From Escherichia coli (lineage in GTDB: Bacteria; Pseudomonadota; Gammaproteobacteria; Enterobacterales; Enterobacteriaceae): DNA of 64,000 nt. This document shows positions 25,906-32,686 of this stretch, piece by piece. The stretch lies in assembly GCF_013315695.1 (NCBI RefSeq), contig NZ_CP054353.1. One strand, 5' to 3'. The position numbers were made by a program, and so were the translations under genes. The notes beneath the pieces are model-generated. The model was not told where the DNA came from. It saw only the letters and a list, made by a program, of their open reading frames with translations, and made no database searches. Each line of letters starts with the position of its first letter. The first letter of the stretch is position 1.

Positions 25906-28713
25906 GTTTCCACTGGTCAGGCTACCCCGCAGCAGGTCTGCTTTGCGGCGGGCGCGTTCAGTGGTTTCACTGATTCTCTGTGCGTGCTCTGCGTCACGGA
26001 TGGCGTGCAGCATGTCAGAAAGCACGGTAACAGGGGTTTTCATGGTGTTCTGGTCCTGCTGAAGTGTGGATGCCAGGCGTGCGGCGGCTTCGGGGTCTGA
26101 TGCCCCCAGCTGTTCCAGATAGCTGGCGACCGGGTTATGGCGGATCTCCGTGCTGCTTACGCCGTGATTACGGCTCAGGCGCTGCCAGAGCTGCGTGATT
26201 CGGCTGTCCGGGCGGGTATCCGGTTTGCGTACAATTTCAAATCCCTGCGGTGCAATGATGCTGCCGTCAACGTACAGACTGCCGCCCCGTAACAGGTGCT
26301 GCATCTGCTGTTCACCAATATGCAGGCCGAGAGATTCAGCAGACTCCCGCCATTCTTTTGCGAGTAACTCGTGGTTATCAGGCAAAGGCTGTGGCTGTTT
26401 GCGGCTCTGTGTCCAGCTCTGCATTTCATAACTGCTGTTTTTGGCCTGTTTGTCACGCAGCGAACGCATCAGCGCCCGGCGTTCGTGCCGTTTCAGTGAG
26501 CGCATCCATTCATTCACTTCAATTTCAATGCCGTCAGGAAGCTGCGGCCACTGTGCTGGCCGTTCTTCCGGCTGTTCTGTCCCGTTGTTGTCCGTTTCCT
26601 GTACACGGGGACAGTTATTGCCACGAGTCCAAGGGGCGGCAGGGCCGCCCTGAAGGTCAAAACCATTTTCGCGGGCGCTGTCTTCCGCTTCCGGTTTGCG
26701 TCTTACCAGCTTCCAGTTATCCGGATGCGTGCATACGCGGGAAGACTCCCCAATGAGCGGCGACCAGATCCCGTAAATCTGTACGCTCTGTTCACCGTAA
26801 TCGTTCAGCTCATCTGCGAGGTCGTAGGCGGTGCGAATCAGGTAGTCTTTGCGTGGAACAAGTACGCCACCCTGTTTCTCAATGTAGGTGGCAAAACATC
26901 CGGCATCAGCGGCAGCGAGTACCGCGTCCATTGCGTCATCCTTCAGCCGTTGCGGGCCTTCCGGGTTGCGTGCCATCTGGCTGGCAAGGCGGCGCAGTTC
27001 ACGCCACACCTGACGGGAGGGGATACCAAAGAACTGGAACTGGCGGACCCGGTGAAGGCGCGCCCAGCCGATGGCGCGTTCCACGCTCTCGGCCATTGAT
27101 TTTCCGGTTTCGTGGTCAACGCGTGGCTTGCCCGTTTTCGGGTCGATGCCATCCACGGCGCGGCTGTCCAGGTTCTTTCCGATGTAGGTGGCGATGTAGC
27201 TGGTTGGTGTGCCTTTTGAGCCGTCTACGTACTCCGCCTTAAAACGCGGAGTTATGTCATCGCCCAGCTCGTGGCGGTCTTCCTGAATGGCAATATCGCA
27301 GACGTGGGACACGATGGTTTCAATCTCGTCCTGATGTGCAAAGACCATCATATGCCAGTGCACAGTGCCGTCATGGTGAGGCTCCACCGTGCGGATGCCA
27401 TACCAGCGCAGACCGTCGCGGTTCAGTTTTTTGCGGACCGCCGCAAAAAACGTGTTAACCAGGTAATCGCTGGAGTCGCGCATGGTGGCCCCGTTCCATT
27501 TGGGATTCGGATGACCGTTCTCCGTTGTTGCGTGGTATTTTGACGGGCAGGTGACAGTCAGAAACACCGCTCTGTCGCCACGGGCTTCGGCCAGAAGTTC
27601 CAGTCCCTTCATGGTGGCCATCATTTCTGCCTTACGGTGAACCGGGTTACTTACTCCCGCGTAATACACTGTCTCGAGATCAATCGTGAACCCGTCTTCG
27701 TTTTCCAGCATGAAACTTTTCAGGAAATCGCGTGTTTTCTCGCGCTGTGCGCGAAACTCGCTTAACGCGTCCTGGCTCAGATAGGGTGATGTTTTTCTGG
27801 AAACCAGACAGGCGGCGCGGAGTTGTTCTTCTCTCCACTCGCAACGTAACAGCCACAGTTTGCGTTTCCACCATTCCGCACAGGTCAGGCGAAGGATTGC
27901 GCCCGGCAGCAGCTCCGTGTCCGGTTCGTTCCTCCGGTCTTTGTCTGTTGTCAGTGCGTCATAATGTGGAGGCATGGCGTGCAGGTGTAACGCCATGCGG
28001 GCCAGCATCTGATACGCCTTCAGCGTTACATCCATGGTCAGTTCGCCATCAGTCGCACCAAAGCCATCGCAGAGTTTTTCGAAGGTGCTGCTGAACATCG
28101 CCGCCGTCATGGTGGCCAGCGTCTGTATCTGGTGTTTGTTGAGCTGCGGCAGGTAAAGCAAATCGTCCAGGCGTTCGCGTCCGGCAAGGGAGCGATAACC
28201 CGGTGTCAGCCAGCGGTGATCGGTGCGGTCCAGGCGTTCGAATATTTTGCGCAGGGTTCCGCGCGCGTAGCGTTCAGCCTGCCAGCTCTTTTTGCCTTTC
28301 TGGCGATCGGCTTCCTGTTTTTTGCGCAGGAAAGAGAGGTGGCGGCTCAGAGGTTCACGCAGATAAACGGGAAGCACCTTCAGTGTGGCAAAAGCACGGG
28401 CCACCGGGTCTTGTTCTGTTGCCTGACGCTTGCTGATGATGCTTTGTGCCAGCTTTTCACGCTGTCCGGCTTCCTCAAGGGATGCCATGAGTTTTTTACC
28501 CACGGTGGATTGTGCGAAAAAGGCTTCCTCCTTCGCTTCCTGTTCTTCCAGAGCCTTTTTGTCTGCCTCAAGGTAGTAACGGATGGCGCGTTGTAGGTCG
28601 GTTTCAGTTTCCTGCCTGTGCTCCGTAAATCTGGCCGGATCAATGGCTGGCCGTGGTTCATTCCAGCTCCATGCAAACTCACTCATGGCTGGTATCCCGT
28701 CACGCGCTGCCAC
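25840..28713 (-). CDS. A: Rolling-circle replication initiator A
   Basis: Contains HUH-like VHWHMMVF and a YIATYIGKN Tyr-containing motif; position as P2 gene A; true start may be the ATG at 28686. Confidence 0.85.
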   Translation of the reverse strand: MAARDGIPAMSEFAWSWNEPRPAIDPARFTEHRQETETDLQRAIRYYLEADKKALEEQEAKEEAFFAQSTVGKKLMASLEEAGQREKLAQSIISKRQATEQDPVARAFATLKVLPVYLREPLSRHLSFLRKKQEADRQKGKKSWQAERYARGTLRKIFERLDRTDHRWLTPGYRSLAGRERLDDLLYLPQLNKHQIQTLATMTAAMFSSTFEKLCDGFGATDGELTMDVTLKAYQMLARMALHLHAMPPHYDALTTDKDRRNEPDTELLPGAILRLTCAEWWKRKLWLLRCEWREEQLRAACLVSRKTSPYLSQDALSEFRAQREKTRDFLKSFMLENEDGFTIDLETVYYAGVSNPVHRKAEMMATMKGLELLAEARGDRAVFLTVTCPSKYHATTENGHPNPKWNGATMRDSSDYLVNTFFAAVRKKLNRDGLRWYGIRTVEPHHDGTVHWHMMVFAHQDEIETIVSHVCDIAIQEDRHELGDDITPRFKAEYVDGSKGTPTSYIATYIGKNLDSRAVDGIDPKTGKPRVDHETGKSMAESVERAIGWARLHRVRQFQFFGIPSRQVWRELRRLASQMARNPEGPQRLKDDAMDAVLAAADAGCFATYIEKQGGVLVPRKDYLIRTAYDLADELNDYGEQSVQIYGIWSPLIGESSRVCTHPDNWKLVRRKPEAEDSARENGFDLQGGPAAPWTRGNNCPRVQETDNNGTEQPEERPAQWPQLPDGIEIEVNEWMRSLKRHERRALMRSLRDKQAKNSSYEMQSWTQSRKQPQPLPDNHELLAKEWRESAESLGLHIGEQQMQHLLRGGSLYVDGSIIAPQGFEIVRKPDTRPDSRITQLWQRLSRNHGVSSTEIRHNPVASYLEQLGASDPEAAARLASTLQQDQNTMKTPVTVLSDMLHAIRDAEHAQRISETTERARRKADLLRGSLTSGNKKQTETGFTNPVNEQKTCRDI

Positions 28714-29144: not shown

Positions 29145-29375
29145 TTAATGGAGTTTGTTTTGCTGCTGGAAGAGTTGTTGCAGCTCGCGCAGATCATCCG
29201 CCAGATAGCTGAAAACAGAGGCGGAATAGATGTTCGATAGCGCGTGGCTGCGCTCATGCAGCATATTGATGTGCATGATTTGCGCGACGCGTGATGCGCG
29301 GAAAAGTCTACGGTTGATTTCAGTCTGGATGTGACGACGCGCAGCGTATGCGCGCTGTTGTTTGCGGTTTGCCAT
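29145..29375 (-). CDS. Hypothetical basic 76-aa early protein
   Basis: ATG 29375 preceded by AAGAGG RBS; MANRKQQRAYAARRH... Confidence 0.55.
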   Translation of the reverse strand: MANRKQQRAYAARRHIQTEINRRLFRASRVAQIMHINMLHERSHALSNIYSASVFSYLADDLRELQQLFQQQNKLH

Positions 29376-29697
29376 GGTGTGGCCTCTTTGCTCGGTGATA
29401 GAAATAGCTCACCATCCAGAGTTGAGAATCTCGGGGTGGCGAGACGTACAGGGTTCTCAACACCGGAGAGCAAAGAATCCGGCCCGACCGAAGTCGGCCC
29501 CGTACGTCCCGCCATAATTCTGACGCGAAAAAGACGTGGCAATACAGTACGCACAAAAAAACCGCTGGCGCGGTTATGCGCTTTGCTCTGTATCGGGTTG
29601 AGAATCCCGGCACCCGTTTTATGAGGTGCAGCGGAAATGTAACCTGACCGATTGCGGCATGGCAAGCGGTTTTTTTGTGTGTGCATGTTCTGGTTTC

Positions 29698-30483: not shown

Positions 30484-30894
30484 CTATGCGTTAAATACGG
30501 TGTGTCGGGCGTCATCAATGAATGCAACTTGAGAGCGCTCTATCAGGCGGAGATTTGTCAGAAGCGCTGATTCCCTTATGGGGTGAGGAGTGATCAGGTA
30601 TTTGTTCTGTAATCCGGCGATAATGGTGTATCGCTGTGGCTCCGAGCCAATAGTGTAAATAAGGCGTCCGGTGTCAGATAAATCCAGTCCGGTGACTGGT
30701 TTAGTTTTGAGAAGCGCAAGTTCCACACCCTGTTCTTCGATGATTTTGGCAGCTTCTGCCGTGACTTTTGCGACTATCATTGTGTGGGTTGCGACGTCCA
30801 TGTGAGCATTGGCCACGGCTTTTTTCGCTACTTCGCTTTCCATCTTTGAAATTTCTTTCAGTGCTCTGATGATACCTTCTTCTTTTGCGTGCAT
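30484..30894 (-). CDS. Hypothetical early protein
   Basis: 136-aa ORF with GGAG RBS. Confidence 0.55.
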   Translation of the reverse strand: MHAKEEGIIRALKEISKMESEVAKKAVANAHMDVATHTMIVAKVTAEAAKIIEEQGVELALLKTKPVTGLDLSDTGRLIYTIGSEPQRYTIIAGLQNKYLITPHPIRESALLTNLRLIERSQVAFIDDARHTVFNA

Positions 30895-30987
30895 TTTTGT
30901 ATCTCCGTTATTTGCGTGTGCGAATACCTCCGTTAATACGGATGGTTTTCACGTTTTCTTATTTAATTTGATGTTTTATTTGTATCG

Positions 30988-31101
30988 TTATTCATCAGAG
31001 AAAAAACGCTCGATCTTTTTCACTGAATTAATAATTCGCATAATCCCAATGGCGCAGGCCACCGAAATAATCAGAACAAGCCATGAGATAAATATACTCA
31101 T
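30988..31101 (-). CDS. Small 37-aa hydrophobic peptide (below the ORF track threshold)
   Basis: MSIFISWLVLIISVACAIGIMRIINSVKKIERFFSDE; ATG overlaps the stop of the upstream 80-aa ORF in an ATGA arrangement. Confidence 0.4.
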   Translation of the reverse strand: MSIFISWLVLIISVACAIGIMRIINSVKKIERFFSDE

Positions 31102-31340
31102 GCGATATTCCCCAGCTTATACGGTTCAATATGTTCTCCGCATTCTGCGGCACAGATCAGCTCGGAAAGTTCGTTAAGTGCATCCAGATCATCAGCGTAA
31201 AAAGCCACGTCATACAGACTCCGGATTGCCCTGGTCAATGAGTCACGGGCTGCACGTTCAGCATGAACGCCTGATGCACTTAAGCGAAAATAAAAACGCT
31301 CAAGTGCTTTGTTGATGAGTGTTTTATATTCTTTGTCCAT
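31098..31340 (-). CDS. Hypothetical early protein
   Basis: 80-aa ORF in the early operon. Confidence 0.55.
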   Translation of the reverse strand: MDKEYKTLINKALERFYFRLSASGVHAERAARDSLTRAIRSLYDVAFYADDLDALNELSELICAAECGEHIEPYKLGNIA

Positions 31341-31351
31341 TGCAACACCCT

Positions 31352-31639
31352 TTAATCTGCTTTCTGTATTTCAGCTTCTGAATCCATACAAATAATTTCG
31401 ATATAGGGTTCATCGCCATTAACTTGGCGTGCCTTTTCAGCTTCGCTAATGATTTCTCGTACGGTCTGGTACGGAAGTTCCACAAGCAGTCGCGTGCCGT
31501 TCAGATAGACGTAAGTGGCTTCGTCGGCTCCGTTTTTACCCGCCGGAGTCACTCCGTCAATAGCGGATGCACGTAATAACAGTTCACCGCGAAAATCAAT
31601 AAAACGGATAAATACACCTTGTGCATGGTCTTTGGTCAT
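31352..31639 (-). CDS. Hypothetical early protein
   Basis: Start placed at MTKDHAQGVF (internal ATG of track ORF 31352..31753). Confidence 0.5.
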   Translation of the reverse strand: MTKDHAQGVFIRFIDFRGELLLRASAIDGVTPAGKNGADEATYVYLNGTRLLVELPYQTVREIISEAEKARQVNGDEPYIEIICMDSEAEIQKAD

Positions 31640-31649
31640 AAAGCACCCG

Positions 31650-31988
31650 TTATAAATCAGCCTGTTTAATAAAACTTTGCCCGCGAAGCAGACGATCAAC
31701 CGTGCGAAGTGCTTCGTATAATGTGAAATCCTGCCCGAACTGATTGTCGCCACAGCTCAATGCAAAAATGCGGTTTCCGGTAAACGGATTGCGTGGGCAT
31801 TTGTGGATCACGATTCCAGCTTTCTCAATCAGCCAGGCGTGCTCGCCGATTTGTTTTACTGGGTAGCCATCCGGCGTTGCGTGTGTATCACTCAGGCTGT
31901 AGCGGATGTTGCTGCGTGATGCACTGGTAGTGAAACGGTTAGCGTGGCGTTCTGTTCCGGTACGAAAATTACGGCGTTGCTTCAGCAT
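31650..31988 (-). CDS. Hypothetical early protein
   Basis: 112-aa ORF, second gene of the early operon. Confidence 0.5.
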   Translation of the reverse strand: MLKQRRNFRTGTERHANRFTTSASRSNIRYSLSDTHATPDGYPVKQIGEHAWLIEKAGIVIHKCPRNPFTGNRIFALSCGDNQFGQDFTLYEALRTVDRLLRGQSFIKQADL

Positions 31989-32002: not shown

Positions 32003-32281
32003 TTATTTTGTCATCTGCACGTATTTTTCTGCGCTCCTGATTGTTTTCAGGAAAAGAGCGAAGAGATTTACTGTGCGTCTTGAGTTCTTTTCATCCTGGT
32101 TGATGGGAATTGAACCTCTGTCAGCCTGTCTTTTCACTGTGTTAACAGCTTGGTTAGTACGCTTTGCGTAATCTTTCAGGCTTTCTTCAAGTACTGGTAA
32201 CCCATGCTCATCGCGGTAGGGATAGAACGCTGCTAAACGCTCAAAGTCTGCCTGTTCGTGTGTGTTCAGGACTTTTGCCAT
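32003..32281 (-). CDS. cox: Cox/Apl-like early regulator (first gene of early operon)
   Basis: Divergent from repressor C; internal segment YAKRTNQAVNTVKRQADRGSIP resembles the P2 Cox helix-turn-helix region. Confidence 0.5.
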   Translation of the reverse strand: MAKVLNTHEQADFERLAAFYPYRDEHGLPVLEESLKDYAKRTNQAVNTVKRQADRGSIPINQDEKNSRRTVNLFALFLKTIRSAEKYVQMTK

Positions 32282-32320: not shown

Positions 32321-32373
32321 GTGTACTTATAAGTACACCTTGTGCGCAAGCTTAGTGTACTTATAGGAACACT
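32321..32373. promoter_or_regulatory. Operator-like palindromes in the C/cox switch region
   Basis: GTGTACTTATAAGTACAC perfect 18-bp palindrome at 32321..32338 and related AGTGTACTTATAGGAACACT at 32354..32373, between divergent cox-like and C genes. Confidence 0.5.
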
Positions 32374-32377
32374 GTCA

Positions 32378-32686
32378 ATGCTTATCGGTGAAAAAATTAG
32401 AGTGATTCGTGAATCAGAGGATTTAACGCGCGAAGAATTTTGCGGCCTGATTGATGTGCCTATCGGCACTTTGCGTCGTTATGAAACGGGGCGGATTGAA
32501 AACATAGGGGGCGAAGTGCTTATCAAGATTGTTAATCACCCTCGCTTTTTTAAGTACATGAATTGGCTTATGACGGGAAAAACAAATGAGGCTGCTGGGC
32601 AGATCAGTCCGTCTCTCTCCCCTGATGGGCCAAAAAGCACATCGCCTTCTCAAAAACCCCGCAAGACTGGCACACAGCCCGGCTAA
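32378..32686 (+). CDS. C: Immunity repressor C
   Basis: MLIGEKIRVIRESEDLTREEF...GTLRRYETGR...HPRFFKYMNWLMTGK resembles P2 C repressor. Confidence 0.7.
   Translation: MLIGEKIRVIRESEDLTREEFCGLIDVPIGTLRRYETGRIENIGGEVLIKIVNHPRFFKYMNWLMTGKTNEAAGQISPSLSPDGPKSTSPSQKPRKTGTQPG

Follow-up and report, generated by a model that had tools for sequence, protein, structure and literature searches.

A peptide of 37 residues, encoded on the minus strand of the window (the whole stretch of 64,000 nucleotides of Escherichia coli DNA that was analysed), is the product of a gene under purifying selection, as judged from the way its codons vary, and it is very likely that this gene is real and is translated into a membrane peptide. 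The gene lies in the early operon of a P88-like Xuanwuvirus prophage of the P2 family, found beside btuC, and it overlaps the end of a gene for an 80-residue DUF4754 protein. The architecture of this DUF4754-peptide pair appears to be the strongest clue to what the peptide does, and the constancy of the pairing would fit a module of two genes better than a toxin that acts alone. A preliminary description of the same DNA had recognised a real peptide gene with one transmembrane (TM) helix, coupled to an upstream ORF of a phage early operon, and had called it unannotated. The gene, its predicted helix, its overlap with the upstream ORF and its operon are borne out below; the last claim is not, since the ORF is present in RefSeq, in GenBank phage records and in UniRef. 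The features concerned are the following:

30988 to 31101, minus strand: the gene of the 37-amino-acid micropeptide (stop codon included), supported by its translation, hydropathy, coding signature, the comparison of 86 loci and the RefSeq and phage P88 annotations.
31098 to 31340, minus strand: the DUF4754 gene (80 amino acids), the upstream candidate partner, recognised by Pfam PF15946 (E 5e-54) and modelled with AF2.
31098 to 31113, minus strand: the putative translational-coupling junction, with an SD-like GGGGAA motif and the ATGA overlap, seen in the sequence.

Translation of positions 30988-31101 on the minus strand gives MSIFISWLVLIISVACAIGIMRIINSVKKIERFFSDE, followed by a stop codon. 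Residues 2 to 21, approximately, form a predicted TM helix (mean Kyte-Doolittle hydropathy of 2.68 over residues 3-21), and residues 22-37 form an amphipathic basic tail that is predicted to be cytoplasmic (muH of 0.67 over residues 21-35, with four K/R and three D/E), in agreement with the single helix and charged tail described at the outset. The AF2 model of the peptide is one continuous helix spanning residues 1-34. As there are no charged residues before the helix and the basic residues come after it, the positive-inside rule would place the N-terminus in the periplasm and the C-terminus in the cytoplasm. Within the helix, a small-xxx-small spacing (S/A13...A17) is conserved, together with G19. 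With its 37 amino acids and a single TM helix (KD19 of 2.68), the peptide has the properties of a small single-TM membrane protein (up to about 50 amino acids, one TM helix). A lipoprotein or secreted precursor was considered and rejected, given the uncharged stretch before the helix, the replacement of Cys16 by Met in the P0005 type of the peptide and the Ser at residue -3.

The length of the ORF alone is unremarkable, because the window holds 550 ORFs of 25-60 amino acids over its six frames. This abundance and the lack of a match in the profile libraries are what one would expect if it were not a gene, but an ORF that arose by chance in an AT-rich spacer and was spread by annotation pipelines. 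Against this, the peptide ORF ranks first in hydrophobicity among the 550, just four of which have a KD19 of 2.3 or more, and it is the sole member of the set whose ATG overlaps the stop codon of a long ORF on the same strand. The pattern of substitutions is also specific to its frame. We compared 85 related loci with the window, giving 86 loci and 33 nucleotide haplotypes. Variable sites at codon positions 1, 2 and 3 numbered 9, 6 and 19, and pN/pS was 0.24 in the peptide frame compared to 1.31 and 1.27 in the other sense frames, these counts being drawn from few sites in the 33 haplotypes, which are related and recombining sequences. A gene on the opposite strand was rejected as an explanation of this pattern: the mirror frame has a low pN/pS, as expected, but its consensus is interrupted by stops and it is open in 11 of the 33 haplotypes, while the remaining antisense frames are closed in every haplotype.

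The 37-codon frame is intact in 78 of the 86 loci. The other eight comprise six with an indel in a T6 run, one truncated at 30 amino acids and one, in phage 503458, where the peptide gene and its DUF4754 gene are degraded together. Between lineages, the dN/dS of the peptide is 0.2-0.35, at a pS of 0.5-0.8 where synonymous sites are near saturation, and S6, W7, L10, I11, G19, I23, I24, K28, I30 and F34 are invariant across the peptide types. Hence, the reading frame is conserved in relatives, which was the check that the preliminary description had set for its own proposal. With this conservation across lineages, and with the start codon and SD-like motif conserved as well, a chance ORF is hardly credible.

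Two further elements lie at the end of the gene and just beyond it:

31001 to 31006, minus strand: the T6 run, in codons 32-34 of the peptide ORF, a recurrent site of 1-nt indels.
30929 to 30942, minus strand: a 5-bp hairpin, TCCGT-ATTA-ACGGA, in the 93-nt spacer after the peptide gene, recognised by covariation.

The 1-nt indel in the T6 run (6/86 loci) replaces the last four residues by an alternative tail of 12 residues, giving variants of 45 amino acids, which are also found in the clusters P0002, P0003 and P0167, one cluster having 63 member sequences. It seems that either the last four residues of the peptide are dispensable or the T6 tract is prone to slippage. The hairpin lies 45 nt 3′ of the peptide stop codon. 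In an alignment of 21 distinct sequences from 89 loci, 99% of the cells are paired, none of 500 shuffles reached the covariation score and slid controls were poor. Compensatory changes occurred twice independently (T:A to C:G and C:G to T:A), and the G.U wobble variants pair on the operon strand only. A U-run is absent 3′ of the hairpin on the sense strand, and terminators are annotated at the corresponding point in the early operons of P2 and 186. The hairpin probably belongs to the early mRNA and could act as a site of processing, protein binding or antitermination.

The conserved hairpin, the terminators of P2 and 186 and the tolerance of the C-terminal tail to frameshifts would all suit an ORF that matters through its translation alone, where the passage of ribosomes between DUF4754 and the next gene serves to avoid Rho-dependent polarity or to control the hairpin and the product itself is irrelevant. 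However, purifying selection acts here at the level of amino acids, with conservative substitutions across the TM helix, and the ten invariant residues are kept between lineages whose synonymous sites are saturated. Moreover, ribosome occupancy alone needs no extreme hydrophobicity. We therefore regard an irrelevant product as very unlikely.

The gene has been catalogued already under several names; it belongs to a known kind of product, the single-TM micropeptides of phages or bacteria (PMC12648545). RefSeq places WP_000021659.1, a “hypothetical protein”, on the matching ORF of strain O55:H7 CB9615. Phage P88 encodes a “membrane protein” (AIZ95115.1) that is 92% identical and occupies the same place in the early operon, following DUF4754; in vB_EcoM-569R5, the peptide is listed as a “putative membrane protein”. 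The exact peptide of the window is the UniRef “Prophage membrane protein” A0A0F3SAN6, whose cluster is found on at least 1000 contigs. These records (AIZ95115.1, WP_000021659.1 and A0A0F3SAN6) describe the same gene as ours with no substantive difference and give a predicted name only, and the gene is left out of some records, such as those of Citrobacter phiSM and phage 520873. No functional work was found in a literature search on the peptide sequence, its accessions and UniProt identifiers, DUF4754 and the genus Xuanwuvirus.

By tblastn, the peptide is 81-97% identical to 12 phage records, which comprise the Xuanwuvirus phages P88, 520873, P884B11 and Citrobacter phiSM and also unclassified Peduoviridae. 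An exhaustive phmmer search of 1.84 billion representatives yielded seven clusters, in which the 41-amino-acid types P0004 and P0005 are 57-62% identical to the peptide. A profile of 41 columns, searched against 5.8 billion proteins, yielded 151 clusters at 90% identity; among the matches listed, these came from E. coli, E. albertii or E. fergusonii and were each a “hypothetical protein” with no Pfam domain. Members of the peptide cluster also occur in Shigella and Salmonella. The peptide had no match at E ≤ 0.1 in Pfam, PHROG or NCBIfam and nothing significant in PADLOC, and no Rfam family overlaps its ORF. In summary, sequence comparison places the peptide in an orphan family that is centred on Escherichia and restricted in lineage. 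A DNA-level scan anchored on DUF4754, with one genome per species, found E. albertii and a single contig from a “Collinsella sp.” metagenome-assembled genome (MAG). This 4-kb contig (JAIJJM010000267.1) carries an E. coli-type DUF4754 gene, the product of which is 96% identical to that of the window, and it is most likely a binning contaminant.

The ORF and its surroundings, a stretch of 1.4 kb, have matches in 1395 of 5426 complete E. coli genomes, and in 825 of these the match covers at least 80% of the stretch. The copy in O55:H7 CB9615 is 99.7% identical and lies in the P2-family prophage beside btuC. The gene order is int, an HTH repressor gene (C) and then a divergent cox-like gene, which opens an early operon that runs towards gpA:

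32321 to 32378, minus strand: the predicted early promoter/operator region, between the C-repressor-like gene (plus strand) and the cox-like gene (minus strand), seen in the sequence.
32003 to 32281, minus strand: the Cox-like gene, first in the early operon.
31650 to 31988, minus strand: the DUF4761 gene, second in the operon.
31352 to 31639, minus strand: the phrog_3800 gene, third in the operon.
25840 to 28713: the gpA replication endonuclease gene, at the far end of the operon.

The peptide gene is the fifth of this operon, after the cox-like, DUF4761, phrog_3800 and DUF4754 genes, and it is followed by the 93-nt spacer, a 136-amino-acid gene, a 67-amino-acid gene, MarR-like and Ead/Ea22-like genes and others up to gpA. 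Its place between cox and gpA in a P2-family prophage supports the phage early operon proposed earlier. The switch region contains a TTGACA hexamer (32378-32373), an 18-bp perfect palindrome, GTGTACTTATAAGTACAC (32338-32321), and an imperfect copy of the palindrome (32372-32355) that abuts the hexamer. By their sequence and placement, these palindromes are probably the operators of the C repressor around the early promoter. No promoter or terminator signals above chance were found between the start of the operon and the peptide ORF (four promoter-like sites in the region compared to 4.1 expected), from which we infer, as the simplest reading, that the peptide would be translated from an internal cistron of a C-repressed early lytic transcript. 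A lysis-cassette protein (holin, antiholin or spanin) was rejected, as the gene is in the early operon, and the late genes are on the other strand and on the other side of the switch.

Other parts of this operon carry features of their own. The 136-amino-acid gene 3′ of the peptide gene (phrog_9338, 30484-30894, minus strand) is variable cargo: it is present in the window, vB_EcoM-569R5 and Citrobacter phiSM, absent from P88 and swapped in other lineages for unrelated genes of 71, 92, 97 or 162 amino acids. Because this gene varies between lineages, the spacer seems to be a point of insertion or exchange. Further downstream, still within the early operon, a full-length Rfam match to the Hfq-binding sRNA isrK (RF01394) was found at 29555-29629 on the minus strand (62.8 bits compared to a gathering threshold of 50, E 2e-12), just 5′ of a 76-amino-acid homologue of the “derepression protein” (29145-29375) and with a terminator-like hairpin at 29575-29560. 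IsrK of Salmonella Gifsy-1 is a regulator of an antirepressor operon. Just past gpA, the CB9615 copy (L001 3095-4370, about 24494-25769 of the window, minus strand) carries annotations for ParM and for a “plasmid partitioning/stability” gene; going by this annotation, partition genes lie next to the replication gene, which is unusual cargo for an integrated P2-family prophage.

At the junction with the upstream gene, the ATG of the peptide (31101-31099) overlaps the TGA of the 80-amino-acid DUF4754 ORF (31100-31098), giving ATGA at 31101-31098 and a 4-nt overlap, as had been described. The SD-like GGGGAA (31113-31108) lies 6-7 nt 5′ of the peptide start. The GCATGA junction is conserved in 85 of the 86 loci. 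In divergent lineages, the SD-like motif takes the form GAGGAG, GAGGTGG or AGGAGG and is retained despite differing C-terminal codons of DUF4754. A masking of the peptide start codon by mRNA structure was not supported (z-score of -0.48). Wherever the context was examined (the 86 loci and the three most divergent peptide types), the peptide gene follows an 80-amino-acid DUF4754 or DUF4754-like gene with the 4-nt overlap; at one of these loci (L086), the 80-amino-acid upstream protein has no recorded Pfam match. The overlap persists where DUF4754 is down to 28-33% identity and the peptide is still 50-65% identical. By comparison, the genes flanking the pair vary between loci, the downstream genes encoding 136, 67, 71, 92, 162 or 97 amino acids. 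Since the pair, the overlap and the SD-like motif outlast both deep divergence and the turnover of the flanking genes, we favour a two-gene module.

The DUF4754 protein itself is predicted by AF2 to be a small helical bundle (pLDDT of 91, helices at residues 3-48 and 52-66), and its model, a generic helical bundle, had no match among PDB folds at E < 1. The label “DNA modification methyltransferase” that it carries in P88 was rejected as unsupported, the sole match being in PADLOC at E 0.033. DUF4754 proteins of 103-116 amino acids, which look like fusions with the peptide, were also set aside: they are frameshifted read-throughs into the wrong frame, mostly singletons from read-level assemblies.

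In the partnership that we tentatively propose, and which may well fail, the peptide would be the membrane half of a two-gene DUF4754-peptide cassette. The gene would be silent in the lysogen through C repression and expressed immediately on infection or induction. Ribosomes ending the translation of DUF4754 would probably re-initiate at the ATGA, aided by the SD-like motif, and this coupling would give roughly coupled amounts of the two proteins. The 37-residue product would then insert into the inner membrane as a single helix, with its N-terminus in the periplasm and its C-terminus in the cytoplasm, and its amphipathic basic tail would rest on the cytoplasmic face of this membrane. There, it may tether the soluble, helical DUF4754 protein or direct it to a target in the host inner membrane during early lytic development. 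A bolder version would be a two-component host-takeover module specific to P88-like phages, with the peptide as an inner-membrane receptor that recruits DUF4754 to disable a membrane machine of the host (divisome, protease, translocon or DNA-entry route) and with the hairpin marking the end of the cassette. In this complete form, we consider it improbable.

Several observations speak against a partnership. The constant adjacency of the two genes could be inherited synteny without any physical interaction, and the natural fusions are the frameshift artefacts noted above. AF2, a method poorly suited to this question, gave no confident docking in a DUF4754-linker-peptide fusion modelled from a paired alignment (pTM of 0.46, peptide pLDDT of about 60). 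Furthermore, one locus (L091, GCA_900536625.1) joins a window-type DUF4754 (85% identical) to a 41-amino-acid peptide of the P0005 type (65% identical), and because of this mixture, the two proteins do not seem to be tightly co-adapted. The same locus is unusual in its setting: over positions 1-2800, MuA/MuB-like genes of a Mu-type transposase precede the DUF4761-DUF4754-peptide block, replacing int, C and cox, and the mosaic of window-type DUF4754 and 41-amino-acid peptide type lies within this cassette.

Alternatively, the peptide might act by itself, as the preliminary description had supposed, that is, as a host-directed effector that perturbs the function of the inner membrane and slows or kills the host early in lytic growth, by targeting the divisome, respiration, transport or membrane integrity, with DUF4754 as a mere neighbour. 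The exchange of the peptide independently of DUF4754 in L091 and the lack of docking in the fusion model (for which AF2 is poorly suited) agree with this, as does the better conservation of the peptide than of DUF4754 between lineages. The S/A13...A17 spacing and G19 may also fit helix-helix packing with another membrane protein, and the position in the early lytic operon is the one where 186 has Fil, an inhibitor of cell division, and Dhr, an inhibitor of host replication. On the other hand, the peptide shows no similarity to toxins, to proteins of the Kil/DicB type or to defence families in Pfam, PHROG, NCBIfam and PADLOC, and neither Fil nor Dhr is a TM peptide. A peptide acting alone would also give no account of the 4-nt overlap with DUF4754, which stays invariant through deep divergence, and we consider such an effector somewhat unlikely.

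The comparison with early host-takeover proteins, which also include lambda Kil, Rac KilR, DicB and T7 Gp0.4, shows what is shared and what is not. Like the peptide, Fil and Dhr of 186 are small and non-structural, and their genes lie in the part of the early lytic operon that separates the switch from the replication gene. However, these takeover proteins are soluble, with a maximal KD19 of 1.26 for Fil and 0.49 for Dhr compared to 2.68 for the peptide. The peptide shows neither sequence similarity to Fil, Dhr, Kil, KilR or DicB nor a connection to them through Pfam or PHROG, and the early operons of P2 and 186 contain no small TM ORF and no equivalent of the peptide.

Type I toxin-antitoxin systems provide another comparison, with membrane toxins such as Hok, TisB and Ldr. 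BsrG, TxpA, YonT and CD/RCd are membrane toxins of the same class, some of them borne by prophages (PMC12648545). The peptide resembles type I toxins in size, in having a charged tail behind a hydrophobic helix and in residing in a prophage. In contrast, each of these toxins has a locus to itself, with a promoter of its own and an antisense sRNA, and stabilises the element, whereas the peptide gene is an internal cistron of a polycistronic unit. Neither an antisense RNA family in Rfam nor an antisense promoter above chance was found at the peptide gene. A type I toxin was thus rejected, the gene being internal, overlapping its upstream neighbour and free of any Rfam family on its ORF.

A closer parallel in form is found in small single-TM proteins that bind larger membrane proteins, among them AcrZ, MgtS, MgrB and CydX. 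CcoQ and CcoS are also of this kind and have the N-out/C-in orientation (PMC12648545). Like them, the peptide is shorter than 50 amino acids and has a single TM helix with conserved small residues and, on its predicted cytoplasmic side, a basic flank. It has no sequence relationship to them and differs in being encoded by a phage, in a lytic early operon, by a gene that overlaps the gene of a soluble protein. By analogy with small membrane proteins, its topology and an insertion by YidC/SecYEG would be expected to be the same (PMC12648545).

A small single-TM peptide of the inner membrane, made early and restricted to one phage lineage, might also be imagined to alter the membrane of the infected cell against further phage genomes, as an early superinfection exclusion or block of DNA entry. 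T4 Imm and HK97 gp15 are comparable proteins. However, the lytic operon should be silenced by C in lysogens, and the lysogen would therefore be left unprotected; the peptide resembles none of the known Sie proteins of PHROGs or PADLOC, and the idea is pure analogy. We consider such a role quite unlikely, and the DUF4754-peptide cassette remains our tentative preference.

In summary, a tiny ORF that was chosen from raw sequence is a real and selected gene, of an ordinary sort for a temperate phage and already catalogued. The cassette that carries it is common, as roughly one in four complete E. coli genomes has a match to the 1.4-kb stretch, and this frequency implies that an early membrane peptide of this type is very common in clinical and commensal strains. 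The non-essential early genes of the P2 family are largely unexplored. If it is true that the peptide or DUF4754 blocks a membrane process of the host, the pair would provide a compact natural inhibitor of that process and a handle on how phages of the P2 family take over the cell.
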